From a virus (lineage: Duplodnaviria; Heunggongvirae; Uroviricota; Caudoviricetes), in IMG/VR virus record IMGVR_UViG_2574180220_000001: a stretch of 15,630 nt of DNA. One strand, given 5' to 3'. The notes below the pieces were generated by a model. That model was not told the DNA's origin. It saw only the letters and a program-made list of their open reading frames with translations, and ran no database searches. Below, in pieces: positions 3,377-15,630 of this stretch (position 1 is the first letter of the stretch; each line of letters starts with the position of its first letter). Made by a program: the position numbers and the translations under genes.

Positions 3377-4105
3377 TTATAGCTCCTTTAATCGAGGCGG
3401 TTCTGGTAGAGGCATCCAGTGGGTTACACCGCCAATTGGCTCATCGTCGTCGTACTCCAATGCGGCTATATAGAACCCGTCACGACGAGAATAAGAAATC
3501 CCGGACATTACAATGCCATCCGAAACAACAATAATGTCACCCGTTTCTTTCGGCATTCGCTCACTACAGCTTATCCAACCATCCGGAGTCACCGGAAGCG
3601 AGAACGGCAGCACATCTCTGTGAACAAGTTTTTGCTGTGACAGGTTATCCAGAACTTTCTGTACTGCTGCATCACCGAATACACCAAGCGCATCTGCCAT
3701 AACTCCTACAACCTGATAAGCCTCAGCGCATACCGTGGATAAACCATCCGGAATTACCGGAGAGTTACGGTCCTTGCGGTAAATCCGGCATGTACAGGAT
3801 TCATTGTCCTGCTCAAAGTCCATGCCATCAAACTGCTGGTTTTCATTGATGATGCGGGACCAGCCATCAACGCCCACCACCGGAACAATGCCGTTCTGCT
3901 TATCAGGGAAGGCGTAAATTTCTTTCGTCCACGGATTAAGGCCGTACTGGTTGGCGACGATCAGCAATGCGATGAACTGCGCATCGCTGGCATCACCTTT
4001 AAATGCCGTCTGGCGAAGAGTGGTGATCAGTTCCTGTGGGTCGACAGAATCCATGCCGACACGTTCAGCCAGCTTCCCAGCCAGCGTTGCGAGTGCTGTA
4101 CTCAT
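3377..4105 (-). CDS. Chimeric ORF: N-terminal ~115 aa of Bet (Red-beta annealing protein) fused in frame to a non-Bet C-terminus ending in a DUF551-like motif (VTHWMPLPEPP)
   Basis: Residues 1-115 (MSTALATLAGKLAERVGMDSVDPQELITTLRQ...NESCTCRIYRKDRN) match lambda Bet; the sequence then diverges completely (SPVIPDGLSTVCAEAY...GGVTHWMPLPEPPRLKEL). No exo gene lies downstream. Junction near plus coordinate 3760. Confidence 0.8.
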   Translation of the reverse strand: MSTALATLAGKLAERVGMDSVDPQELITTLRQTAFKGDASDAQFIALLIVANQYGLNPWTKEIYAFPDKQNGIVPVVGVDGWSRIINENQQFDGMDFEQDNESCTCRIYRKDRNSPVIPDGLSTVCAEAYQVVGVMADALGVFGDAAVQKVLDNLSQQKLVHRDVLPFSLPVTPDGWISCSERMPKETGDIIVVSDGIVMSGISYSRRDGFYIAALEYDDDEPIGGVTHWMPLPEPPRLKEL

Positions 4106-4110
4106 CCGTT

Positions 4111-4527
4111 TTATACCTCTGAATCAATATCAACCTGGTGGTGAGCAATGGTTTCAACCATGTACCGGATGTGTTCTGCCATGCGCTCCTGAAACTCAAC
4201 ATCGTCATCAAACGCACGGGTAATGGCTTTTTTGCTGGCCCCGTGGCGTTGCAAATGATCGATGCATAGCGATTCAAACAGGTGCTGGGGCAGGCCTTTT
4301 TCCATGTCGTCTGCCAGTTCTGCCTCTTTCTCTTCACGGGCGATCTGCTGGTAGTGACGCGCCCAGCTCTGAGCCTCAAGACGATCCTGAATGTAATAAG
4401 CGTTCATGGCTGAACTCCTGAAATAGCTGTGAAAATATCGTCCGCGAAATGCCGGGCTGATTAGGAAAACAGGGAAGGGGGGTAGTGAATGCTTTTGCTT
4501 GATCTCAGTTTCAGTATTAATATCCAT
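4111..4527 (-). CDS. gam: Gam (RecBCD inhibitor), 138 aa
   Basis: [15 protein letters not shown]...[10 protein letters not shown] matches lambda Gam; internal Met (MNAYYIQ) corresponds to the GamS start. Confidence 0.95.
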
Positions 4528-4625
4528 TTTTTATAAGCGTCGACGGCCTCACGAAACATCTTTTCATCGCCAATAAAAGTGGCGATAGTGAATTTAGTCT
4601 GGATAGCCATAAGTGTTTGATCCAT
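4461..4625 (-). CDS. kil: Kil (FtsZ-targeting host-killing peptide), ~54 aa here
   Basis: [39 protein letters not shown]...; start has an AGGAG Shine-Dalgarno and overlaps cIII by 32 nt and gam by 67 nt. I recall lambda Kil as 47 aa, so the C-terminus may be extended here. Confidence 0.8.
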
Positions 4626-4758
4626 TTTTTGGGACTCCTGGCTGATTAAGTATGTCGATAAGGCGTTTCCATCCGTCACGTAATTTACGGGTGATTCGTT
4701 CAAGTAAAGATTCGGAAGGGCAGCCAGCAACAGGCCACCCTGCAATGGCATATTGCAT
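4594..4758 (-). CDS. cIII: CIII (FtsH/HflB inhibitor), 54 aa
   Basis: Hand-translated [54 protein letters not shown] with AAGGAG Shine-Dalgarno; below the ORF-track size cutoff. Confidence 0.9.
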   Translation of the reverse strand: MQYAIAGWPVAGCPSESLLERITRKLRDGWKRLIDILNQPGVPKNGSNTYGYPD

Positions 4759-4785
4759 GGTGTGCTCCTTATTTATACATAACGA

Positions 4786-4808
4786 AAAACGCCTCGAGTG
4801 AAGCGTTA
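4786..4808 (-). terminator. Weak terminator-like hairpin between ea10 and cIII (short stem followed by U5 on the minus transcript)
   Basis: Seen in sequence: AACGC...GCGTT stem around an XhoI palindrome, then TTTTT on the minus strand. Could correspond to a pL-operon terminator; weak. Confidence 0.3.
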
Positions 4809-4830
4809 TTGGTATGCGGTAACGCCGCGC

Positions 4831-5199
4831 TCAGGCGGCTTTGATAGTCATATCATCTGGATCAAATATTCCTGATGTATCGATATCGGTAATTCTTATT
4901 CCTTCGCTACCATCCATTGGAGGCCATCCTTCCTGACCATTTCCATCATTCCAGTCGAACTCACACACAACACCATATGCATTTAAGTCGCTTGAAATTG
5001 CTATAAGCAGAGCATGTTGCGCCAGCATGATTAATACAGCATTTAATACAGAGCCGTGTTTATTGAGTCGGTATTCAGAGTCTGACCAGAAATTATTAAT
5101 CTGGTGAAGTTTTTCCTCTGTCATTACGTCATGATCGATTTCAATTTCTATTGATGCTTTCCAGTCGTAATCAATGATGTATTTTTTGATGTTTGACAT
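4831..5199 (-). CDS. ea10: Ea10 (lambda Ssb-like protein), 122 aa
   Basis: 122-aa ORF MSNIKKYIIDYDWKASIEIEIDHDVMTEEKL... matching lambda Ea10 in size, sequence and position. Confidence 0.9.
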   Translation of the reverse strand: MSNIKKYIIDYDWKASIEIEIDHDVMTEEKLHQINNFWSDSEYRLNKHGSVLNAVLIMLAQHALLIAISSDLNAYGVVCEFDWNDGNGQEGWPPMDGSEGIRITDIDTSGIFDPDDMTIKAA

Positions 5200-5381
5200 C
5201 TATTCATATCCTCATAGATAAAAAATCGCCCTCACACTGGAGGGCAAAGAAGATTTCCAATAATCAGAACAAGTCGGCTCCTGTTTAGTTACGAGCGACA
5301 TTGCTCCGTGTATTCACTCGTTGGAATGAATACACAGTGCAGTGTTTATTCTGTTATTTATGCCAAAAATAAAGGCCACTA

Positions 5382-5582
5382 TCAGGCAGCTTTGTTGTTC
5401 TGTTTACCAAGTTCTCTGGCAATCATTGCCGTCGTTCGTATTGCCCATTTATCGACATATTTCCCATCATCCATTACAGGAAACATTTCTTCAGGCTTAA
5501 CCATGCATTCCGATTGCAGCTTGCATCCATTGCATCGCTTGAATTGTCCACACCATTGATTTTTATCAATAGTCGTAGTCAT
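5382..5582 (-). CDS. ral: Ral (restriction alleviation protein), 66 aa
   Basis: MTTTIDKNQWCGQFKRCNGCKLQSECMVKPEEMFPVMDDGKYVDKWAIRTTAMIARELGKQNNKAA matches lambda Ral; 183-bp spacing to ea10 as in lambda. Confidence 0.92.
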   Translation of the reverse strand: MTTTIDKNQWCGQFKRCNGCKLQSECMVKPEEMFPVMDDGKYVDKWAIRTTAMIARELGKQNNKAA

Positions 5583-5687
5583 ACGGATAGTCCTGGTATT
5601 GTTCCATCACATCCTGAGGATGCTCTTCGAACTCTTCAAATTCTTCTTCCATGTATCACCTTAAATAGTGGATTGCGGTAGTAAAGA

Positions 5688-5909
5688 TTGTGCATGGCCC
5701 GTCTGAAAAAGAACAACAGCGATTTGCACGATTTATTAGTAGATTATTATATAGTCGGTATGACATTCATGTCACTGGCAGGTAAGCATTGCTGCTCTGA
5801 TGGTTATATCGGGAAAAGGTTACAAAAGGCTGAGGGCATAATTGAAGGGATGTTAATGGCATTAGATATCCGGTTAGAGATGGATATCGTTGTTAATAAC
5901 TCTAATTAA
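5688..5909 (+). pseudogene. 5'-truncated remnant (C-terminal ~71 aa) of an antiterminator Q gene of the phage 82 / DLP12 QuuD type
   Basis: [71 protein letters not shown] resembles the C-terminus of Q82/QuuD as I recall it; frame is closed by a TAA just upstream; lies immediately upstream of the porin and lysis genes, where Q sits in DLP12/PA-2-type phages. Lambda-like sequence ends at about 5693. Confidence 0.55.
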
Positions 5910-5928
5910 TACGCCAATTATTTACTAA

Positions 5929-5960
5929 AAGTTATTAAAAATGGGGCGTTGAAACGCCCC
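5929..5960 (-). terminator. Intrinsic terminator downstream of the porin gene (GGGGCG-UUUCAA-CGCCCC then AUUUUU on the minus transcript)
   Basis: Seen in sequence: 6-bp GC stem followed by a U-tract on the minus strand; the last of four consecutive hairpins 3' of the porin gene. Confidence 0.5.
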
Positions 5961-6097
5961 CAAAAATAAAGGGTAATATATAACAGAAGGTTTATATAGT
6001 TAGAAGCAAGGTTGTGCTTCTAAAGGAAGTGGCTTGAGGGAGCCACTTATATGTTGGGGAGGCAAAGCCTCCCACAACATATCTTTTAGTAATCAAA

Positions 6098-7180
6098 TTA
6101 GAACTGGTAAACCATACCTACAGCAACGATATCATCGGTAGCAACGCCAGATGCTTTCGTGAAATCGCTCTTATCAATCAGGTTGATTTTGTAGTCAACA
6201 AAAGTGGACATATTTTTGTTGAAGTAATAGGTTGCACCTACATCAACATATTCAACCAGGTCCTGATCACCCCAAACACCCAAGTCTTTTCCTTTAGAAT
6301 GCAGGTAAGCAACGGATGGACGCAGGCCGAAGTCGAACTGATATTGTGCAACAGCTTCGAAGTTTTGTGCTTTGTTGGCAATATGGTTATTACCAAAAAC
6401 AGTCATGTTCTGGGTTTCAGAATAGGTGGTAGCCAGATAGATGTTGTTCGCATCATATTTCAGACCAGCTGCCCATACTTCAGCATTTTGACCAGAAGCA
6501 TTCAGACCGTTGTTACCGTAGATAACCTGATTATTAGTGCGATCAGATTTAGCATAGGTTGCACCCACGCCGAATCCTTCATACTCATAAGTAGTTGAGA
6601 AACCGAAACCATCGCCATTAGCTTCAGTTACTTCATTTCGGTCATTTTTGCCCTGATACTGAGCTGCAAAGTTCAGGCCATCAACCAGACCAAAGAAGTC
6701 GTTGTTACGATAAGTTGCAACACCTGTGGTGCGACCAGTCATGAATACATCTGTTTGGGTCCAGGTATCGCCACCGAATTCTGGCAGAACGTCGGTCCAT
6801 GCACCGATGTCGTATGCTACACCGTAGTTACGGCCGTAATCGATGGAGCCGTAGTCACCGAATTTCAGGCCAGCGAAGGCAAGACGGGTTTTATCTTTGG
6901 AGGAACCTTGAGATTCAGCGCGGTTGCCTTTGAATTCATATTCCCACTGACCGAAACCAGTCAGTTGATCGTTGATTTGGGTTTCACCTTTGAAGCCAAG
7001 ACGGGCATAAGTAGTATCACCATCATCTGCATCATTAGAGGAGAAGTAGTGCTTGGCATTAACTTTCCCGTACAGATCCAGCTTGTTACTGTCTTTATTA
7101 TAAATTTCAGCTGCCTGAGCAGACATCGCCATCAGTACTGATGCAGCTACAGCAGAAATTGCCACTGTTAATTTTTTCAT
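6098..7180 (-). CDS. nmpC: OmpC-family general porin, prophage-encoded NmpC/Lc-like, intact (360 aa)
   Basis: Signal peptide [23 protein letters not shown], porin motifs ([57 protein letters not shown]), C-terminal VYQF. Position between Q and the holin matches the lc/nmpC moron of PA-2/DLP12. Confidence 0.85.
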
Positions 7181-7608
7181 CGTGAGCCCTTTTTTTTGAA
7201 CTATTATTAAAAAATGATGTCACTGCGCGATAAATATTCATCTAATCAATGTGATTATTTCAAGATGTAAGTTTTAGTTTCTCGTTTGATTTGTGAAGTA
7301 GATCTCTATTTTTATCTGAACTTTTTTCTATCGAATCCTATTCATGGCTCTTGGCTGAATAAAAATAAATCTATTAGCCAATTTATATTAACGGCTGTTA
7401 TTTATAAGTGCTCTATAATTTGAAGGTTCAATTTAAACCGGCTAAAAATAACACTGGAAATTATTTATTGGTTATTTGTTGAGATTTTCTTATGTATTTG
7501 TAGTGGTGTTTTCAATACTCGGTAGCATTCTCGCAAATATCATTTAGTGGTTTACGTACGTAAAAAATTGGTTATGCTGTTAAGAGTGGTTACTTCGTCA
7601 CACAGCTT

Positions 7609-7641
7609 AAACCCGCCGTCGAGCGGGTTTTTCCATTTTTT
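7609..7641 (+). terminator. Intrinsic terminator upstream of the holin gene, tR'-like (AAACCCGC-CGTCGA-GCGGGTTT then TTCCATTTTTT)
   Basis: Seen in sequence: 8-bp stem and T-rich tract on the plus strand about 130 bp before the holin start. A possible late promoter (TTTACG ... TATGCT, about 7551-7578) precedes it, with low confidence. Confidence 0.5.
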
Positions 7642-7769
7642 GAGTCTCGATATTAGCTGATAACCCAATACCTGAGTTATTCACTGACTCCGAGTCTGTT
7701 ACGTTTCTGCTTTTTTGCGATACGTTGTATTCCCTCAATTTACACCCGCTTTGTCTGCGAGGTGGGGTT

Positions 7770-7985
7770 ATGAAATCCATGGATAAGTTAACAACGGGTG
7801 TCGCCTATGGCACCTCAGCAGGTAGTGCCGGTTACTGGTTTTTACAGCTGCTCGATAAAGTCACGCCCTCACAGTGGGCAGCAATAGGTGTGCTGGGTAG
7901 CCTGGTATTTGGCCTGCTGACGTACCTGACAAACCTTTATTTCAAGATTAAAGAAGATAAGCGCAAGGCTGCGAGAGGTGAATAA
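7770..7985 (+). CDS. S: Class II holin (pinholin), phage 21 S-type, 71 aa with dual-start motif MKSMDK
   Basis: [71 protein letters not shown] resembles S21 / EssD; GGTGGGG Shine-Dalgarno. The track ORF 7725..7985 begins at an upstream start. Confidence 0.85.
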
Positions 7986-8482
7986 TGCCTCCATCATTAC
8001 GAAAAGCCGTTGCTGCTGCTATTGGTGGCGGAGCAATTGCTATAGCATCAGTGTTAATTACTGGCCCAAGTGGTAACGATGGTCTGGAAGGTGTCAGCTA
8101 CGTACCATACAAAGATATCGTTGGCGTATGGACTGTATGTCACGGACACACCGGAAAAGACATCATGCTCGGTAAAACGTATACCAAAGCAGAATGCAAA
8201 GCACTCTTGAATAAAGACCTTGCCACTGTCGCCAGACAAATTAACCCGTACATCAAAGTCGATATACCGGAAACAACGCGCGGCGCTCTTTACTCATTCG
8301 TTTACAACGTGGGTGCTGGCAATTTCAGAACATCGACGCTTCTTCGCAAAATAAACCAGGGCGATATCAAAGGCGCATGTGATCAGCTACGTCGCTGGAC
8401 ATATGCTGGCGGTAAGCAATGGAAAGGTCTCATGACTCGTCGTGAGATTGAGCGTGAAATCTGTTTGTGGGGTCAGCAATGA
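7985..8482 (+). CDS. R: SAR endolysin (T4-lysozyme-like, GH24), phage 21 R-type, 165 aa
   Basis: N-terminal Gly/Ala-rich signal-arrest-release segment ([20 protein letters not shown]), catalytic E-x8-D/C-x5-T region ([23 protein letters not shown]); start overlaps the holin stop. Confidence 0.9.
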
Positions 8483-8940
8483 ACAGAGTAACCGCGATTA
8501 TCTCCGCTCTGGTTATCTGCATCATCGTCTACCTGTCATGGGCTGTTAATCATTACCGTGATAACGCCATTACCTACAAAGCCCAGCGCGACAAAAATGC
8601 CAGAGAACTGAAGCTGGCGAACGCGGCAATTACTGACATGCAGATGCGTCAGCGTGATGTTGCTGCGCTCGATGCAAAATACACGAAGGAGTTAGCTGAT
8701 GCTAAAGCTGAAAATGATGCTCTGCGTGATGATGTTGCCGCTGGTCGTCGTCGGTTGCACATCAAAGCAGTCTGTCAGTCAGTGCGTGAAGCCACCACCG
8801 CCTCCGGCGTGGATAATGCAGCCTCCCCCCGACTGGCAGACACCGCTGAACGGGATTATTTCACCCTCAGAGAGAGGCTGATCACTATGCAAAAACAACT
8901 GGAAGGAACCCAGAAGTATATTAATGAGCAGTGCAGATAG
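8479..8940 (+). CDS. Rz: Rz inner-membrane spanin (i-spanin)
   Basis: [55 protein letters not shown]... matches lambda Rz; ATGA overlap with the R stop. Track lists 8467 as an alternative upstream start. Confidence 0.9.
8699..8881 (+). CDS. Rz1: Rz1 outer-membrane lipoprotein spanin (o-spanin), embedded in the +1 frame of Rz
   Basis: [60 protein letters not shown]; lipobox LVVVGC and proline-rich region; fully nested inside Rz as in lambda. Confidence 0.9.
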
Positions 8941-8971
8941 AGTTGCCCATATCGATGGGCAACTCATGCAA

Positions 8972-9265
8972 TTATTGTGAGCAATACACACGCGCTTCCA
9001 GCGGAGTATAAATGCCTAAAGTAATAAAACCGAGCAATCCATTTACGAATGTTTGCTGGGTTTCTGTTTTAACAACATTTTCTGCGCCGCCACAAATTTT
9101 GGCTGCATCGACAGTTTTCTTCTGCCCAATTCCAGAAACGAAGAAATGATGGGTGATGGTTTCCTTTGGTGCTACTGCTGCCGGTTTGTTTTGAACAGTA
9201 AACGTCTGTTGAGCACATCCTGTAATAAGCAGGGCCAGCGCAGTAGCGAGTAGCATTTTTTTCAT
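8972..9265 (-). CDS. bor: Bor lipoprotein (serum-resistance, Iss-like lysogenic conversion protein), 97 aa
   Basis: MKKMLLATALALLITGCAQQTFTVQNKPAAVAPKETITHHFFVSGIGQKKTVDAAKICGG... matches lambda Bor; lipobox LITGC. Confidence 0.9.
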   Translation of the reverse strand: MKKMLLATALALLITGCAQQTFTVQNKPAAVAPKETITHHFFVSGIGQKKTVDAAKICGGAENVVKTETQQTFVNGLLGFITLGIYTPLEARVYCSQ

Positions 9266-9555
9266 GGTGTTATTCCCGATGCTTTTTGAAGTTCGCAGAA
9301 TCGTATGTGTAGAAAATTAAACAAACCCTAAACAATGAGTTGAAATTTCATATTGTTAATATTTATTAATGTATGTCAGGTGCGATGAATCGTCATTGTA
9401 TTCCCGGATTAACTATGTCCACAGCCCTGACGGGGAACTTCTCTGCGGGAGTGTCCGGGAATAATTAAAAACGATGCACACAGGGTTTAGCGCGTACACG
9501 TATTGCATTATGCCAACGCCCCGGTGCTGACACGGAAGAAACCGGACGTTATGAT

Positions 9556-10089
9556 TTAGCGTGGAAAGATTTGTGTAGTGTTCTGAATGCTCTCAGTAAA
9601 TAGTAATGAATTATCAAAGGTATAGTAATATCTTTTATGTTCATGGATATTTGTAACCCATCGGAAAACTCCTGCTTTAGCAAGATTTTCCCTGTATTGC
9701 TGAAATGTGATTTCTCTTGATTTCAACCTATCATAGGACGTTTCTATAAGATGCGTGTTTCTTGAGAATTTAACATTTACAACCTTTTTAAGTCCTTTTA
9801 TTAACACGGTGTTATCGTTTTCTAACACGATGTGAATATTATCTGTGGCTAGATAGTAAATATAATGTGAGACGTTGTGACGTTTTAGTTCAGAATAAAA
9901 CAATTCACAGTTTAAATCTTTTCGCACTTGATCGAATATTTCTTTAAAAATGGCAACCTGAGCCATTGGTAAAACCTTCCATGTGATACGAGGGCGCGTA
10001 GTTTGCATTATCGTTTTTATCGTTTCAATCTGGTCTGACCTCTTTGTGTTTTGTTGATGATTTATGTCAAATATTAGGAATGTTTTCAC
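9556..10089 (-). CDS. Hypothetical protein at the position of lambda p78, possibly DUF1398 / YbcV-like; function unknown
   Basis: 177-aa ORF; size and spacing to bor and to the next ORF match the lambda right arm. An internal Met ([11 protein letters not shown]...) would give 136 aa, the size I recall for DLP12 YbcV. Family assignment is from memory only. Confidence 0.65.
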
Positions 10090-10251
10090 TTAATAGTATT
10101 GGTTGCGTAACAAAGTGCGGTCCTGCTGGCATTCTGGAGGGAAATACAACCGACAGATGTATGTAAGGCCAACGTGCTCAAATCTTCATACAGAAAGATT
10201 TGAAGTAATATTTTAACCGCTAGATGAAGAGCAAGCGCATGGAGCGACAAA

Positions 10252-10458
10252 ATGAATAAAGAACAATCTGCTGATGATCCCTCCGTGGATCTGATTCGTG
10301 TAAAAAATATGCTTAATAGCACCATTTCTATGAGTTACCCTGATGTTGTAATTGCATGTATAGAACATAAGGTGTCTCTGGAAGCATTCAGAGCAATTGA
10401 GGCAGCGTTGGTGAAGCACGATAATAATATGAAGGATTATTCCCTGGTGGTTGACTGA
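10252..10458 (+). CDS. Hypothetical 68-aa protein at the position of lambda p79 (YbcW-like)
   Basis: [71 protein letters not shown]; 163-bp spacing from the preceding ORF as in lambda. Confidence 0.6.
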
Positions 10459-10622
10459 TCACCATAACTGCTAATCATTCAAACTATTTAGCCTGTGACA
10501 GAGCCAACACGCAGTCTGTCACTGTCAGGAAAGTGGTAAAACTGCAACTCAATTACTGCAATGCCCTCGTAATTAAGTGAATTTACAATATCGTCCTGTT
10601 CGGAGGGAAGAACGCGGGATGT

Positions 10623-10817
10623 TCATTCTTCATCACTTTTAATTGATGTATATGCTCTCTTTTCTGACGTTAGTCTCCGACGGCAGGCTTCAATGACCCA
10701 GGCTGAGAAATTCCCGGACCCTTTTTGCTCAAGAGCGATGTTAATTTGTTCAATCATTTGGTTAGGAAAGCGGATGTTGCGGGTTGTTGTTCTGCGGGTT
10801 CTGTTCTTCGTTGACAT
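10623..10817 (-). CDS. Putative ribbon-helix-helix (Arc/CopG-like) DNA-binding protein, 64 aa
   Basis: MSTKNRTRRTTTRNIRFPNQMIEQINIALEQKGSGNFSAWVIEACRRRLTSEKRAYTSIKSDEE: basic N-terminal tail, beta-strand (RNIRFP), helix, G-x-S-x-N turn, second helix; typical RHH pattern. Lies ~200-400 bp upstream of cos. No strong Shine-Dalgarno. Confidence 0.45.
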   Translation of the reverse strand: MSTKNRTRRTTTRNIRFPNQMIEQINIALEQKGSGNFSAWVIEACRRRLTSEKRAYTSIKSDEE

Positions 10818-11009
10818 GAGGTTGCCCCGTATTCAGTGTCGCTGATTTGTATTGTCTGAAGTTGTTTTTACGTTAAGTTGATGCAGATCAATTAATACGA
10901 TACCTGCGTCATAATTGATTATTTGACGTGGTTTGATGGCGTAGATGCACGTTGTGACATGCAGATGATAATTATTATCATTTTGCGGGTCCTTTCCGGT
11001 GATCCGACA

Positions 11010-11200
11010 GGTTACGGGGCGGCGACCTCGCGGGTTTTCGCTATTTATGAAAATTTTCCGGTTTAAGGCGTTTCCGTTCTTCTTCGTCATAACTTAATGT
11101 TTTTATTTAAAATACCCTCTGAAAAGAAAGGAAGCGACAGGTGCTGAAAGCGAGCTTTTTGGCCTCTGTCGTTTCCTTTCTCTGTTTTTGTCCGTGGAAT
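11010..11200. other. cos region: cosN 12-nt cohesive-end sequence GGGCGGCGACCT at about 11017-11028, followed by cosB up to the nu1 start
   Basis: Seen in sequence: GGGCGGCGACCTCGCGGGTTTTCGCTATTTATGAAAATTTTCCGGTTTAAGGCG... matches the lambda left end / cos junction as I recall it. Confidence 0.85.
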
Positions 11201-11205
11201 GAACA

Positions 11206-11775
11206 ATGGAAGTCAACAAAAAGCAGCTGGCTGACATTTTCGGTGCGAGTATCCGTACCATTCAGAACTGGCAGGAACAGGGAATGCCCGTTCTGCGAGG
11301 CGGTGGCAAGGGTAATGAGGTGCTTTATGACTCTGCCGCCGTCATAAAATGGTATGCCGAAAGGGATGCTGAAATTGAGAACGAAAAGCTGCGCCGGGAG
11401 GTTGAAGAACTGCGGCAGGCCAGCGAGGCAGATCTCCAGCCAGGGACTATTGAGTACGAACGCCATCGACTTACGCGTGCGCAGGCCGACGCACAGGAAC
11501 TGAAGAATGCCAGAGACTCCGCTGAAGTGGTGGAAACCGCATTCTGTACTTTCGTGTTGTCGCGGATCGCAGGTGAAATTGCCAGTATTCTCGACGGGAT
11601 CCCCCTGTCGGTGCAGCGGCGTTTTCCGGAACTGGAAAACCGACATGTTGATTTCCTGAAACGGGATATCATCAAAGCCATGAACAAAGCAGCCGCGCTG
11701 GATGAACTGATAACGGGGCTAAAGCGCAGGCGCTCACTATCAACAAGGATGAGGTTAACTCAACTGTTGATTTAA
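11206..11775 (+). CDS. nu1: Terminase small subunit Nu1 with its C-terminus replaced (first ~170 aa lambda-like, last ~19 aa unrelated)
   Basis: MEVNKKQLADIFGASIRTIQNWQEQGMPVLRGGGKGNEVLYDSAAVIKWY... matches lambda Nu1 up to ...KAMNKAAALDELI, then diverges (TGLKRRRSLSTRMRLTQLLI); no terminase large subunit gene follows. Confidence 0.85.
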   Translation: MEVNKKQLADIFGASIRTIQNWQEQGMPVLRGGGKGNEVLYDSAAVIKWYAERDAEIENEKLRREVEELRQASEADLQPGTIEYERHRLTRAQADAQELKNARDSAEVVETAFCTFVLSRIAGEIASILDGIPLSVQRRFPELENRHVDFLKRDIIKAMNKAAALDELITGLKRRRSLSTRMRLTQLLI

Positions 11776-12428
11776 CTCTTACAAAACAAACAGGGACTGG
11801 AAATCGTTTTGTTTTACAGAACTTAGGTAATACAGAACTATCATTTGCCGCAAAAGTATGGGGATCAAGTGATCGACAAAACGTTTTTGAGGTTGGAACG
11901 TCTGCTGCGTATCTGTTTTATGCGCAAAAAACGTCAGCAGGCCAGTTGTTTGATGTAAATGGCGCTATTAATTGCACAACGCTGAATCAGTCATCAGACC
12001 GCGACCTTAAAGACGATATTCTCGTTATCAGCGACGCGACGAAAGCAATCCGTAAAATGAACGGATACACCTACACGCTCAGGGAAAACGGGATGCCTTA
12101 TGCTGGCGTTATTGCACAGGAAGTAATGGAGGCGATACCAGAAGCTGTGGGATCGTTTACTCATTACGGTGAAGAGTTGCAGGGACCAACGGTTGACGGC
12201 AATGAATTACGTGAAGAAACACGTTATCTGAATGTTGACTACGCCGCCGTGACGGGGTTACTTGTTCAGGTCGCCCGTGAAACAGATGGTCGCGTTACCG
12301 CGCTGGAAGAGGAAAACATAACGCTACGTAAAAATCTGGCAACAGCAGGCACCCGGATCAGCACTCTGGAAAATCAGGTAAGCGAACTGGTTGCACTTGT
12401 CCGGCAGTTAACAGGAAGCGAACATTGA
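11706..12428 (+). pseudogene. C-terminal fragment of a tail fibre / tailspike gene carrying a peptidase S74-type intramolecular chaperone domain; no own start at the junction
   Basis: Frame is open from the nu1 junction; contains the autoproteolysis-type motif SSDRDLKDDI followed by NGYTYTLRENGMPYAGVIAQEVMEAIPEAV and a C-terminal coiled-coil-like segment. Track reports only the Met-initiated part, 11946..12428. Confidence 0.6.
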
Positions 12429-12473
12429 TATCCTTCAAGCCCTGAAGGAGGCTGTTCCCGGTACGTTCAGACT

Positions 12474-12608
12474 GTTGTTGGGCTGGAGATCGCAACGGAG
12501 GAAGAAAACTCGTTGCTGGAAGCCTGGAAAAAGTATCGGGTGTTGCTGAACCGTGTTAATACAACAACTGCACCGGATATTGAATGGCCAGTAGCACCTA
12601 TAGGGTAA
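12474..12608 (+). pseudogene. 3' fragment of a tail-fibre assembly gene (Tfa-like C-terminus), no start codon
   Basis: Hand-translated: ...[41 protein letters not shown], resembling the conserved Tfa C-terminus (lambda Tfa ends ...[26 protein letters not shown]... as I recall); same frame as the preceding ORF, directly after its stop. Confidence 0.6.
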
Positions 12609-12692
12609 ATTCGTAATGATTACCTAAATACGTTATTCTTTTGTTCAAAAAGTGATTTTGCTATAGGTAGGGAGTATGTTCTTGGATTAAGA

Positions 12693-12724
12693 ATAAAAAA
12701 TCGCCATGAAAGAGCTTCATGGCG
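12693..12724 (-). terminator. Hairpin with U-tract on the minus strand (CGCCAUGAA-loop-UUCAUGGCG then AUUUUUU)
   Basis: Seen in sequence: 9-bp stem followed by a T-run on the minus strand, inside the AT-rich non-coding region; no obvious upstream minus-strand gene. Confidence 0.3.
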
Positions 12725-13467
12725 AGTACATAAACGTACAAAATGTGATGAAAGTAGAGTGGCGTAAGCCACTATATTAAGATATGACAATAGCGAAGAA
12801 AAGTAAATAACATTTTATGGACGTTTAATTGTTAATTATAAAAACTAGAGTGCCCGATATTGTTTATCTTGCTTTAAAATAATGTACTCAAACCAAATTT
12901 TTGAGCTAAAAGCTCAAATAATATAAATGCAATGATAATGTTTAATAAGACAATTAGCTTGCTTTGTATTTTCATTTCGGAATACTGTTAAGTAACTTTG
13001 ATGACCCTAACAATAGATCGGAATTTTCTTAGGGTCAATGGTCAATGTTTTTGCTTGCAAAGCAAATGTTTTGGTGGTTATAAGTTGTCTTAATATAGTC
13101 ACGCATGCAACTTGTTCCATGCGGAGATTAAAGATTGGAATATAACGCGAAGATGGAATTAAATTACATTTGCAATAACCAATTTATTATTACTCAATAA
13201 TTACCGATATTATTATTGTAAATTAATCATTAGAGTGCAAAAAGAAATGTAACGGCAAAATAAGAGGACGATAGCTGAGAAAAAAGCGTGCTTTCCCAAT
13301 CTGGGGCAAATCACGTCTGAATGACACCTGAAAACAGGTGGTAGCCTCAAGAAGGCTTGGAATATTCTTCTTTAATGTTATGTAATTCATTGATTTTTCG
13401 TGTACGATTTTAAGACATTTATTCCAAGAAAAATTTTTAACTCTTTGATTTTTCGACTCTGTATCAT

Positions 13468-13529
13468 CGGTCTCGAAAACCGGAGTAGGGGCAACTCTAC
13501 CGGGGGTTCAAATCCCCCTCTCTCCGCCA
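13468..13529 (+). tRNA. Partial tRNA-Ser (CGA anticodon; serU-like) 3' portion only (anticodon arm, variable arm, T-arm, acceptor 3' strand, CCA); 5' part absent
   Basis: GGTCTCGAAAACCGGAGTAGGGGCAACTCTACCGGGGGTTCAAATCCCCCTCTCTCCGCCA matches the 3' two-thirds of E. coli tRNA-Ser(CGA) as I recall it; upstream sequence cannot pair to form the acceptor or D arms. Confidence 0.7.
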
Positions 13530-14104
13530 CTTTATCAATGACTTATCTCCCGACTTCCCGCCTTGCTTTTCCTAAACAGAACAATCGTAGAATATTCTTG
13601 AAGGGTTAGATCGTCACTGTTTTCTGTTCGATACTGTGACATTCAGCACTTGATTCGCTATGGATCTGACAGGAAGGTTTTGAGCGAAAATTTGCAGTTA
13701 TTCAGTTGTTTTCTTATCGGTCACCATTATTCTTTTAGACATTGATCCTACAAAGCTGCCGCAAAGTTGGTGGTGGGAACTGAAGTTGCGTAGAGAAGGG
13801 GTCAATACCCGGAGGCAAACATGGGCTGGCAAAAGTGTAGCGGTATTAGGCGCAGCTATTTAGCCTAGTTATGTTTTATGAAAACTTGATATCATATAAG
13901 TGTCTTACTTATTGGCTGTAAATAAGTTTTTCCTAAGGAATTGTTTCTTGAGTATCATTTGTAACTGTAACGGAATTTATAATCCTTTGCTTTATTGTTA
14001 CGGTATTTTTTATCACACCCTATTTTTTATGTGGTTTTTTATACTGAAGTTTGGCAAAGTGAACTTTATATGCATATACTTCATCCTGGTTTCAGTTAAG
14101 TTGG

Positions 14105-14857
14105 GTGGATGATATGGCAACTACATGTTCAGTTATATTGATTTTGGAGTCCTTTGATGTTTATTTCGGAAAAGAGAGTGTGTTTCTGGAGAGAGGTTCA
14201 TCTGTACTTGTCGACTCTAGCTCTAGAGATTTTTTCCTGACATATCCTGAAAGAGTGATAGTGGCGGATTTTGGCGCTGAGTTTATTAGTCGCTATTTGA
14301 AAGCTAATAACTTAAGGGATATTTCTGATTGTAGGGAATATCCATCTTATTTAAAAATAAACTTTGCTGACTTCAGTTTAATTAAAGGATTAATTAGTTG
14401 GGCTAATCACTGTGCTGAATACATAGAAATTTTTGATGAGTCTATTGCTTTTACATGTCTCTCTGCATTTTCTTCTGAAAAACAATTTGGAGTATTTCTG
14501 TTTGAATGTTTGAAAAGCACAGGGGCTAAAGTTAAAACGATTATTCATACGGATTTATCTGCACCATGGCGTCTTAAGGATATATCATCAAGATTATATC
14601 TCAGCGAAAGTTTACTAAAGAGGAAATTGAAAGAAGAGGGGGTATCATTCAGTAAGATCATACTTGATGAGAGGATGCAAATGGCTGAATATTTACTCAG
14701 CACTCGTTGTTATCCTATTAGTAAAGTAGCTAAGGTCTGTGGTTATGCCAGTGTTTCATACTTTACTTATGTATTTAGACGTTATTTTGGTGTTTCTCCA
14801 AGTCAATACTCTCAGAGCAGTTCAGAAAGTAAAATTCTTACTCACCAGGGAATCTGA
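14105..14857 (+). CDS. AraC/XylS-family transcriptional regulator (YdeO/AppY/GadX-like), 250 aa
   Basis: C-terminal double helix-turn-helix region (PWRLKDISSRLYLSESLLKRKLKEEGVSFSKIILDERMQMAEYLL...VAKVCGYASVSYFTYVFRRYFGVSPSQY) typical of AraC family; AT-rich codon usage consistent with horizontally acquired DNA. Confidence 0.85.
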   Translation: MDDMATTCSVILILESFDVYFGKESVFLERGSSVLVDSSSRDFFLTYPERVIVADFGAEFISRYLKANNLRDISDCREYPSYLKINFADFSLIKGLISWANHCAEYIEIFDESIAFTCLSAFSSEKQFGVFLFECLKSTGAKVKTIIHTDLSAPWRLKDISSRLYLSESLLKRKLKEEGVSFSKIILDERMQMAEYLLSTRCYPISKVAKVCGYASVSYFTYVFRRYFGVSPSQYSQSSSESKILTHQGI

Positions 14858-15351
14858 TCATTGTTCTTGCCCCCTTATTTCCAGACAGGGGGTGTATCTT
14901 AAGTTAACGTTACCCGCTGACGTCGATATTCTCGCGGAGAGCGATAACCCAACGCACTGTGCGGATGGTTTTCATTGTAATGTTCGATCGCCACTGCAAG
15001 ATTATGCAATGCCGTTCTTACATTCGGTTTCGGCATGAACGCGATGTAGTCTTCCTTCATCGTTTTCACGAACCTTTCTGCCATTCCATTACTCTGAGGA
15101 CTGCTGATTGCCGTTGTGCAGGGCTCCAGATTCAACTCTCTGGCGAACTGCCATGTTTCATGCGCTCTATACGCTGAACCGTTATCTGTCAGCCACTGGA
15201 TGGACTGTTCCGGTACTTTATCGCCAAAGCGTTTTTCTATCGCTCCTAACATGACATCCTGCACTGTCGCTTTATCGTAACCTCCCGTGCTTGCGGCCCA
15301 GTCTATGGCTTCACGATCGCAACAGTCCAGGGCGAACGTAACACGCAGTTT
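14858..15351 (-). mobile_element. Truncated IS2-like element (IS3 family): terminal inverted repeat plus the 3' half of orfB
   Basis: Terminal sequence TTGCCCCCTTATTTCCAGACA resembles the IS2 end; minus-strand ORF fragment [24 protein letters not shown]...[50 protein letters not shown]...[14 protein letters not shown] resembles the IS2 OrfB integrase core. The 5' part is cut off at about 15351. Confidence 0.7.
14899..15351 (-). pseudogene. IS3-family (IS2-like) transposase OrfB, C-terminal fragment
   Basis: DDE/rve integrase-core motifs ([25 protein letters not shown]); the frame is open upstream of the reported Met but lacks the N-terminal half. Confidence 0.7.
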
Positions 15352-15630
15352 TGAATCGCCACGGGTTTAACAGACACCTCAGAGTCATTTAAGATGGCTT
15401 AAAGAGAGGTGCCCATGAGCGGTAAGCGTTATCCCGAAGAGTTTAAAACTGAAGCAGTCAAACAGGTTGTTGATCGCGGTTATTCTGTTGCCAGCGTTGC
15501 AACACGTCTCGATATCACCACCCACAGCCTTTATGCCTGGATAAAGAAGTACGGTCCGGATTACTCCACTTTTTCATCAAGCCAATCCGCCCACCACTGC
15601 ATCATTTCTCTGCGCTTATCGAAATACTGA
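15352..15630 (+). mobile_element. Left end of a second IS3-family element (IR beginning TGAATCGCCACGGG) with orfA; continues beyond the window
   Basis: IR-like terminus starting with TGA about 63 bp upstream of an orfA-type ORF; inserted into the IS2-like orfB. Family assignment by general resemblance only. Confidence 0.6.
15415..15630 (+). CDS. IS3-family transposase OrfA (HTH protein), possibly truncated or frameshifted at its C-terminus
   Basis: MSGKRYPEEFKTEAVKQVVDRGYSVASVATRLDITTHSLYAWIKKYGPD... is a typical IS3-family OrfA N-terminus with a helix-turn-helix; ATG at 15415 preceded by AGAGAGG. The tail (YSTFSSSQSAHHCIISLRLSKY) lacks the usual leucine-zipper-like segment. Confidence 0.6.
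   Translation: MSGKRYPEEFKTEAVKQVVDRGYSVASVATRLDITTHSLYAWIKKYGPDYSTFSSSQSAHHCIISLRLSKY

Follow-up and report, generated by a model that had tools for sequence, protein, structure and literature searches.

The distal tail-fibre region of the window, which is the whole 15,630-nt stretch of viral DNA analysed here (IMG/VR record IMGVR_UViG_2574180220_000001), is in all probability a doubly degraded host-range locus that combines an old replacement scar with a recent local deletion. The scar consists of the end of a tail-fibre gene (stf') coding for a Peptidase_S74 (S74) intramolecular chaperone domain, followed by a short spacer and a start-less 3' end of the tail fibre assembly gene tfa (tfa'). 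It is an old and fixed companion of this chaperone-domain allele, not a local event.

The window represents a cryptic prophage of the lambda-like type, integrated at the att-lambda site that lies between ybhC and ybhB (Table 1). From the porin gene through nohD (6156-11718) it is 96% identical with the DLP12 prophage of K-12, and the same identity holds for nohD' itself up to 11718. Between nohD' and stf' there are no head or tail genes. With respect to the usual marks of pseudogenes in cryptic prophages, stf' is truncated, lacks a start codon and its N-terminal domain, and stands in a prophage that has lost its morphogenetic genes.

Table 1. Features of the window, in map order (positions in nt)
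Feature	Position	Strand	Remarks
ybhC	1-1284	minus	Beside a lambda-type int/xis pair
Bet-DUF551 fusion ORF	3377-4105		Early-region remnant
cIII thermoregulator RNA	4713-4771		Among early-region remnants
OmpC/NmpC-like porin gene			Intact; 3' of the early-region remnants
S/R/Rz lysis genes, bor, ybcV, ybcW, ylcI			Between the porin gene and nohD'
nohD'	11206-11775	+	Truncated homologue of lambda Nu1 (terminase small subunit); Pfam Phage_Nu1, E = 1e-100, aa 1-164
Distal Stf piece	11706-11993	+	Last 96 codons of the mature part, no start codon; 98.3% identity with mEp460 stf; PHROG 6578
Deletion junction	11707-11718		Imperfect microhomology of 12 nt (nohD: CTGATACCGGGG; stf: CTGTTAACGGGG)
Peptidase_S74 intramolecular chaperone domain	11994-12428	+	Pfam PF13884; core 11994-12149; stop TGA 12426-12428
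Spacer (37 nt)	12429-12465		AAGGAGG at 12446-12452, no usable start codon behind it
tfa 3' remnant, start-less	12466-12608	+	Codons ~147-193 of the 193-aa ev099 Tfa, plus stop

The stf' fragment begins at position 11706, the start given in an earlier note on this DNA, and this is exactly the junction with nohD'. A TGA at 11703-11705 is followed by 240 open codons in frame 0 (11706-12425) up to the TGA given in Table 1, and the 160-aa ORF at 11946-12428 is the stretch from the first TTG in that frame, not a gene. Against the 1210-position profile of PHROG tail-fibre family 6578, the fragment matches at the C-terminal end (E = 3e-113). The proposal of the earlier note that it is an Stf C-terminus with an S74-like chaperone domain is confirmed by the Pfam search, in which Peptidase_S74 (PF13884) matches amino acids 97-148 (nt 11994-12149) over positions 1-57 of the 58 in the profile, scoring 48.4 bits where the cutoff is 22 (E = 1.2e-12). 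The full-length relatives also match this profile above the cutoff. NCBIfam gives no match for the window fragments or for the Stf of E. coli ACN002.

The putative scissile residue, Ser97 (11994-11996), and Lys102 (12009-12011) form the arrangement S97-DRDL-K102 within the motif SSDRDLK. The Lys lies five residues past the second Ser, and the motif aligns to SSDRRIK of phage S16 gp37 (PDB 6F45). [quoted passage not shown] The window domain shares with those of K1F and pb1 the C-terminal position, the Ser-x4-Lys dyad, a size of ~133-146 aa, and an alpha/beta part followed by a coiled-coil-like tail (~12273-12419 in the window). The sequence similarity to both is only distant, cleavage is a prediction for the window allele, and, unlike the domains of K1F and pb1, that of the window is attached to a lambdoid Stf shaft in a truncated gene. 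The profile score, the catalytic motif and the position all assign the fibre piece to the family of S74 chaperone domains, and the score and the motif, together with the near-identical annotated relatives, settle the identity of the domain. Residues 46-97 of the Stf piece show a weak likeness to the C-terminal trimerisation domain of T4 gp34 (PDB 5NXF/4UXE, E = 0.03; Pfam Gp34_trimer, E = 0.067).

The S74 domain starts ~144 residues before the stop in the fibres of mEp460 (1202 aa), of PhiR70_1 (830 aa) and of ACN002 (736 aa). The Stf proteins of mEp460 and PhiR70_1 carry a phage_tail_N anchor at the N-terminus, while their last ~145 residues hold the S74 domain. In contrast to the window, where the fibre upstream of the S74 domain is reduced to 96 codons and at least 496 codons have gone together with the phage_tail_N domain, the stf genes of mEp460 (gp20), Ayreon and PhiR70_1 are of full length (830-1252 aa) and retain the anchor.

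The frame of stf stays open behind its TGA, from 12429 to a TAA at 12606-12608, and it was in this frame that the earlier note had placed a start-less tfa 3' end. The Pfam search bears out this reading too: Caudo_TAP (PF02413) matches at 65.2 bits, the cutoff being 22.1 (E = 8.5e-18), and solely over positions 87-130 of the 131 in the profile (nt 12468-12599), that is, over the Tfa C-terminus. Neither the S74 nor the Tfa match is due to chance. Partial similarity to intact tfa begins at ~12466 and near-identity at 12483, and the start of the tfa-derived part lies at ~12466-12483 and not, as had been noted, at 12474; ev099 and mEp332 have an intact tfa of 582 bp, with the 3' end of which window positions 12483-12608 share ~99% nucleotide identity. 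The frame has no ATG or GTG, and its sole start candidate, the TTG at 12513, would yield 31 aa. A complete Tfa is an ORF of ~190 aa with a start codon and a match to the whole profile; the tfa piece is a Caudo_TAP gene fragment and not a tfa gene, and PGAP labels the identical sequence in ACN002 'tail fiber assembly protein, incomplete, missing N-terminus'.

That stf and the tfa remnant share a reading frame across the TGA is without significance. Every copy looked at has this TGA, and the idea that it is a recent mutation of an S74-Tfa fusion was rejected, the codon being present in three phages and in all 49 IMG/VR copies. Nor is the spacer (12429-12465) supported as a frameshifted, diverged part of tfa, because no tfa gene matches it by blastn, and its column identity with intact tfa, assessed by eye and not computed, is near random.

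The same arrangement is found well beyond the window. In mEp460, Ayreon and PhiR70_1, the stop codon, the 37-nt spacer and the tfa remnant stand behind a full-length S74-type stf, and a tfa gene is absent; the nucleotide identity with the chaperone-domain allele of the window is 98.3% in mEp460 (over 11707-12588), 91% in Ayreon and 98.3% in PhiR70_1. These three are the only ones among 50,697 phage records in which the spacer is present. The IMG/VR clade, defined as the 62 loci whose chaperone domain is at least 86% identical to that of the window, contains 50 loci with downstream sequence, and all 50 have the remnant at the same offset and no full-length tfa within 4 kb. Forty-nine of the IMG/VR loci have at least 190 nt downstream, giving 36 unique remnant sequences. 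The spacer is kept in all 49, a constant companion of this chaperone-domain allele, and the remnant frame is open in 48, the remaining one (L045) being frameshifted. The remnant keeps its position 37-55 nt past the stf stop, although it is not a Tfa-dependent kind of fibre that stands before it. Among complete E. coli genomes, the S74-to-tfa' junction occurs in 802 of 5426, where PGAP annotates it as an S74 family peptidase and a partial tail fibre assembly pseudogene. The earlier note had taken the arrangement for a module-replacement scar at the host-range locus. The scar stands, but an origin in this prophage does not. What is seen here, and already annotated by PGAP, is the usual mosaicism of tail fibres, in an att-lambda prophage that is decaying.

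The comparison of related stf/tfa loci that the earlier note had suggested supports the scar. Phages ev099 and mEp332 have an intact stf and a 193-aa tfa (582 bp), and the DNA of the window from 12483 to 15620 is 99.3% and 99.1% identical with theirs, respectively; the common block runs from tfa codon ~152 through an AraC-type regulator and IS fragments. Upstream of 12483 the ev099 and mEp332 loci diverge from the S74-type loci. Unlike the window, they have (as does lambda) an intact Tfa, a Tfa-dependent fibre tip and no S74 domain. In contrast, PhiR70_1 and ACN002 have an S74-type stf, of tfa only codons ~147-193, as in the window, and the same downstream block. Since the intact tfa and the remnant thus stand on the same downstream DNA, the two pairs form a natural before-and-after set, and a tidy natural example of a self-chaperoning fibre end in the place of a Tfa-dependent one.

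On this basis we infer the following history. The ancestor would have been a lambdoid phage in which a fibre end with a C-terminal S74 intramolecular chaperone of its own took the place of the distal part of stf and of the first ~146 codons of tfa. Within an intact fibre, the S74 domain would form trimers and serve as a template on which the fibre tip ahead of it folds, after which it would release itself by cleavage at the SSDRDLK Ser with the help of the Lys five residues downstream. A fibre end that is its own chaperone would make a separate Tfa dispensable, and of tfa only the conserved last ~47 codons may then have been left, as a scar that is not translated. For trimeric fibre tips, an intramolecular chaperone at the C-terminus and a separate Tfa have been described as alternative folding solutions (BASEL completion preprint, Figure S7 legend). 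As a counterpoint, however, S16 gp37, which has this kind of chaperone domain, still works with the accessory protein gp38 (PDB 6F45). The search of phage records yielded no donor for either the S74 cassette or the 37-nt spacer, so that the original replacement event is reconstructed from its product. The mEp010-like chaperone-domain clade (79-85% amino acid identity) has no remnant, and it was rejected as the direct donor of the cassette, as it diverges before the stop codon.

The scar reading agrees with the complete genome of mEp460, in which tblastn finds only Tfa residues 147-191; the genome has no annotated tail fibre assembly gene and no other lambda-type Tfa. For mEp460, completion of the lytic as well as of the lysogenic cycle has been reported (bioRxiv 10.1101/2022.06.30.498228). 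The viability of mEp460 is no proof that its Stf is assembled; lambda PaPa is viable without side fibres.

After the replacement, the scar may have served repeatedly as the right-hand crossover site, by which the S74 cassette would have become linked to at least seven downstream contexts. The 36 unique remnants have at least seven C-terminal endings that match different tfa alleles, including those of the ev099, mEp460 and K-12 TfaD types. Homology to the ACN002 allele typically ends at the equivalent of window position 12563, 12589-12591, 12598 or 12612, i.e., inside or at the end of the remnant, and the downstream DNA of mEp460 and Ayreon is unlike that of the window from ~12589. A role of the conserved tfa 3' end as a site of later crossovers is consistent with experiments in which lambda recombined with defective prophages inside a 95%-identical tfa region (PMC3945230). 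Mosaic boundaries recur on the left side as well, at several positions in stf. One of them is seen in PhiR70_1, whose fibre tip is unlike that of the window until three codons ahead of the scissile Ser and whose homology with the window begins at 11985. The chaperone domain thus likewise behaves as a constant module beneath variable tips.

It might further be supposed that second-order selection maintains the remnant because it offers, on the right-hand side, a universal homology arm for swaps of S74 cassettes by homologous recombination. This would be in line with its presence in every one of the 50 informative loci, the variety of downstream tfa endings and the breakpoints within it, and, if true, it would mean that an S74 tip cassette could enter any lambdoid phage or prophage with a Tfa-type locus. 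Nevertheless, such selection is improbable, as neutral hitch-hiking accounts more simply for the same data.

A functional remnant is less probable again, and indeed very unlikely. The remnant would, according to this alternative, act as a mini-Tfa peptide, made from the TTG at 12513, by readthrough of the TGA or by reinitiation, or else as a cis element of the late operon. Its frame is open from 12429 to 12605, in phase with stf, and has been kept so in nearly all related loci; its best PHROG match is phrog_2341 (E = 4e-20), a family of 88 aa with no known function and with this domain at its end; and a GGAGG lies 11 nt upstream of the TTG. The openness of the frame could hint at constraint, but repeated recombination with functional tfa genes explains it, and the variation in the tfa-derived part mirrors that of intact tfa alleles, as recombination predicts. 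A peptide is also opposed by the lack of any start other than that of the 31-aa TTG ORF, by the frameshifted copy, and by the variants seen in the 18 codons that precede the tfa-derived part (P/S, W/R, V/A, E/G and G/S), all of which change the amino acid in frame. As to a cis element, neither a plus-strand terminator nor a strong promoter lies within the remnant or directly behind it, and the search of the remnant against Rfam gave no family. A regulatory role was rejected, there being no plus-strand terminator-like site, and the weak promoter-like matches being no commoner than in shuffled sequence.

It is equally improbable that the S74 domain is a degenerate, non-cleaving relic of a fibre type that depends on Tfa, with the loss of tfa amounting to a loss of fibre function across the lineage. 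A dead stf could persist in this way, for lambda-like phages can do without side fibres, as does lambda PaPa, and no published experiment on this S74 allele was found in the literature. However, both residues of the dyad are conserved, and the Pfam score exceeds the cutoff by a wide margin; three independent phages have kept ORFs of full length (830-1252 aa), and the chaperone domain is 59-79% identical with those of many lytic-phage fibres. The conserved dyad, the maintained ORFs and the likeness to lytic-phage fibres argue for purifying selection.

The recent layer of the history would be a deletion in the window, mediated by microhomology, of what remained of the terminase, J, lom and 5' stf sequences. 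Its extent can be read from the att-lambda cryptic prophage of E. coli ACN002 (NZ_CP007491.1; L091), in which the fibre gene is annotated as a 'pyocin knob domain-containing S74 family peptidase' (ACN002_RS04220) and the remnant as a partial 'tail fiber assembly protein' (RS24560). Like the window, the ACN002 prophage has the S74 end, the spacer, the tfa remnant, the AraC-type regulator and the IS fragments. Window positions 4475-11718 correspond to 1237-8480 of L091, and 11707-15630 to 12508-16431, both with 99.95% identity. The two blocks overlap in the window by 12 nt, and the overlap is the imperfect repeat given in Table 1; across the junction, 4,039 bp of the ACN002 sequence are missing. 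It follows from the two blocks and their shared 12-nt repeat that the window has undergone a microhomology-mediated deletion of 4,039 bp, with loss of the 3' end of nohD, of the pieces that had been left of the terminase large subunit, J and lom genes, and of codons 1-496 of stf. Unlike the window, ACN002 retains a full nohD, a terminase-large fragment, the J' and lom' fragments and these 496 stf codons. Its stf, however, already lacks the phage_tail_N anchor, which indicates that the decay has been progressive.

The deletion joins nohD at codon ~168, out of frame, to codon 497 of stf. The sequence of nohD' is Nu1-derived up to ~11712, from where it runs out of frame into stf' to a stop at 11773-11775. 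As stf' lacks a start codon and the two fragments are in different frames, the locus in the window is dead and nothing in 11706-12608 is expected to be expressed. The exact nohD'-stf' junction of the window was found in none of the complete E. coli genomes in the collection searched. Prophages of the E. coli N1193 type, however, have an nohD'-stf' junction just 9 nt from that of the window, with more divergent flanks; in N1193, PGAP marks the equivalent pieces as partial pseudogenes.

In a prophage so visibly decaying, with this deletion at 11707-11718 and the Bet-DUF551 fusion ORF, and with start-less tfa pieces such as tfaX known from K-12 DLP12, the tfa fragment might be taken for local decay, i.e., for an intact tfa truncated by a deletion here and unrelated to the S74 cassette, but this is effectively refuted by the same left boundary, spacer and stop in the viable phages mEp460, Ayreon and PhiR70_1, in all 50 IMG/VR loci and in the 802 E. 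coli genomes, which indicate that the truncation is older than this prophage and travels with the cassette. The DLP12 segment nohD-aaaD-tfaD-ybcY-tfaX resembles the window in its start-less tfa remnants (tfaX) and in the absence of morphogenetic genes. It differs in having a full nohD, the short pseudogene aaaD, a full-length tfaD and no S74 fibre piece, as well as in its integration site and its deletion.

In annotation, the region should accordingly appear not as a 160-aa ORF but as a pair of pseudogene fragments within a decaying att-lambda prophage, namely tfa' and an stf' that includes the S74 chaperone domain. Beyond correct annotation, the locus is of little importance: the arrangement is already known, and it is real but ordinary. 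For the engineering of chimeric lambda Stf proteins, the comparisons lend support to the idea that S74-type tips may be graftable without their cognate Tfa.

Two minor observations concern the sequence downstream. A tRNA-like translation (GGFEPP) at ~13387-13530 was examined with ARAGORN, which reported no tRNA. The sole good hairpin is a minus-strand terminator hairpin at 12701-12725, downstream of the tfa remnant.

The fusion of nohD' (the truncated Nu1 homologue) with stf' (the start-less side tail fibre C-terminus) at 11707-11718 was produced by a 4,039-bp deletion, as judged against the prophage locus of E. coli ACN002 (L091), which is 99.95% identical. The junction carries a microhomology of 10/12 nt, the two copies of which lie at 8469-8480 and 12508-12519 of L091. 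In a second prophage type, which occurs in E. coli N1193 and in 188 further complete genomes, CTGATA is joined to AAGCGC; this junction is only 9 nt shorter than that of the window, and its flanks are ~95% identical (comparison position ~4610 in locus L001). The N1193-type junction may be a 9-nt slippage derivative, or else the product of an independent deletion at a hotspot.

The stretch of ~50 residues that ends the mature fibre, directly upstream of the putative cleavage site (11841-11996), shows a weak likeness to the C-terminal trimerisation domain of gp34, the proximal long tail fibre protein of T4 (PDB 5NXF/4UXE, E = 0.03; Pfam Gp34_trimer, E = 0.067). In phage PhiR70_1, homology to the window starts at 11985, three codons upstream of the putative scissile Ser. 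PhiR70_1 therefore shares the chaperone domain, the scar (the start-less tfa 3' remnant) and the downstream block with the window, but its fibre tip is of another kind. The motif at the putative cleavage site acts as a mosaic boundary.

The DNA downstream of the scar (12609-15630) is 98-99% identical in PhiR70_1 and in ev099 and mEp332, two phages with intact stf-tfa, and looks like a moron region with remains of IS elements, located at the right end of the three phages.

Features downstream of the scar and in other parts of the prophage
Feature	Position	Strand	Remarks
Bet/RecT-DUF551 fusion ORF	3377-4105	-	242 aa; DUF551 domain fused to the first ~100 residues of a recombinase of the Bet/RecT type
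Lambda_thermo (Rfam)	4713-4771	-	lambda cIII thermoregulator RNA element; 88.5 bits (gathering score 50)
OmpC/NmpC-type porin gene	6098-7180	-	intact, 360 aa
Terminator hairpin	12701-12725	-
AraC-family regulator	14105-14857		250 aa; YdeO/GadX-like, but NCBIfam cutoffs are far above its scores
Transposase fragment	14899-15264	-	rve domain
IS3-family HTH_Tnp_1 fragment	15409-15630

Elsewhere in this cryptic prophage, the cIII leader is intact. The fused Bet/RecT-DUF551 ORF indicates a further internal deletion, in the early region. The porin gene is uninterrupted; its homologue in DLP12 of K-12, nmpC, carries an IS5 insertion.

A second start-less tfa fragment lies ~1 kb 3' of the first (~5200-5670) in several IMG/VR loci (L017, L020, L028, L031, L050, L052, L066 and L071), in agreement with the order tfa'-ybcY-tfaX in DLP12 and N1193. 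Such arrangements show that tfa 3' relics build up at this locus.

In the lambda-like phage HannyBb (L008, 1832-3260), there is a short S74-type fibre protein of 343 aa, the chaperone domain of which is 65% identical. Downstream of it come, in this order, a hypothetical ORF of 99 aa, a tfa 3' fragment that lacks annotation and a DNA invertase gene. HannyBb may thus present a second, independent instance of an S74 fibre beside a tfa relic.
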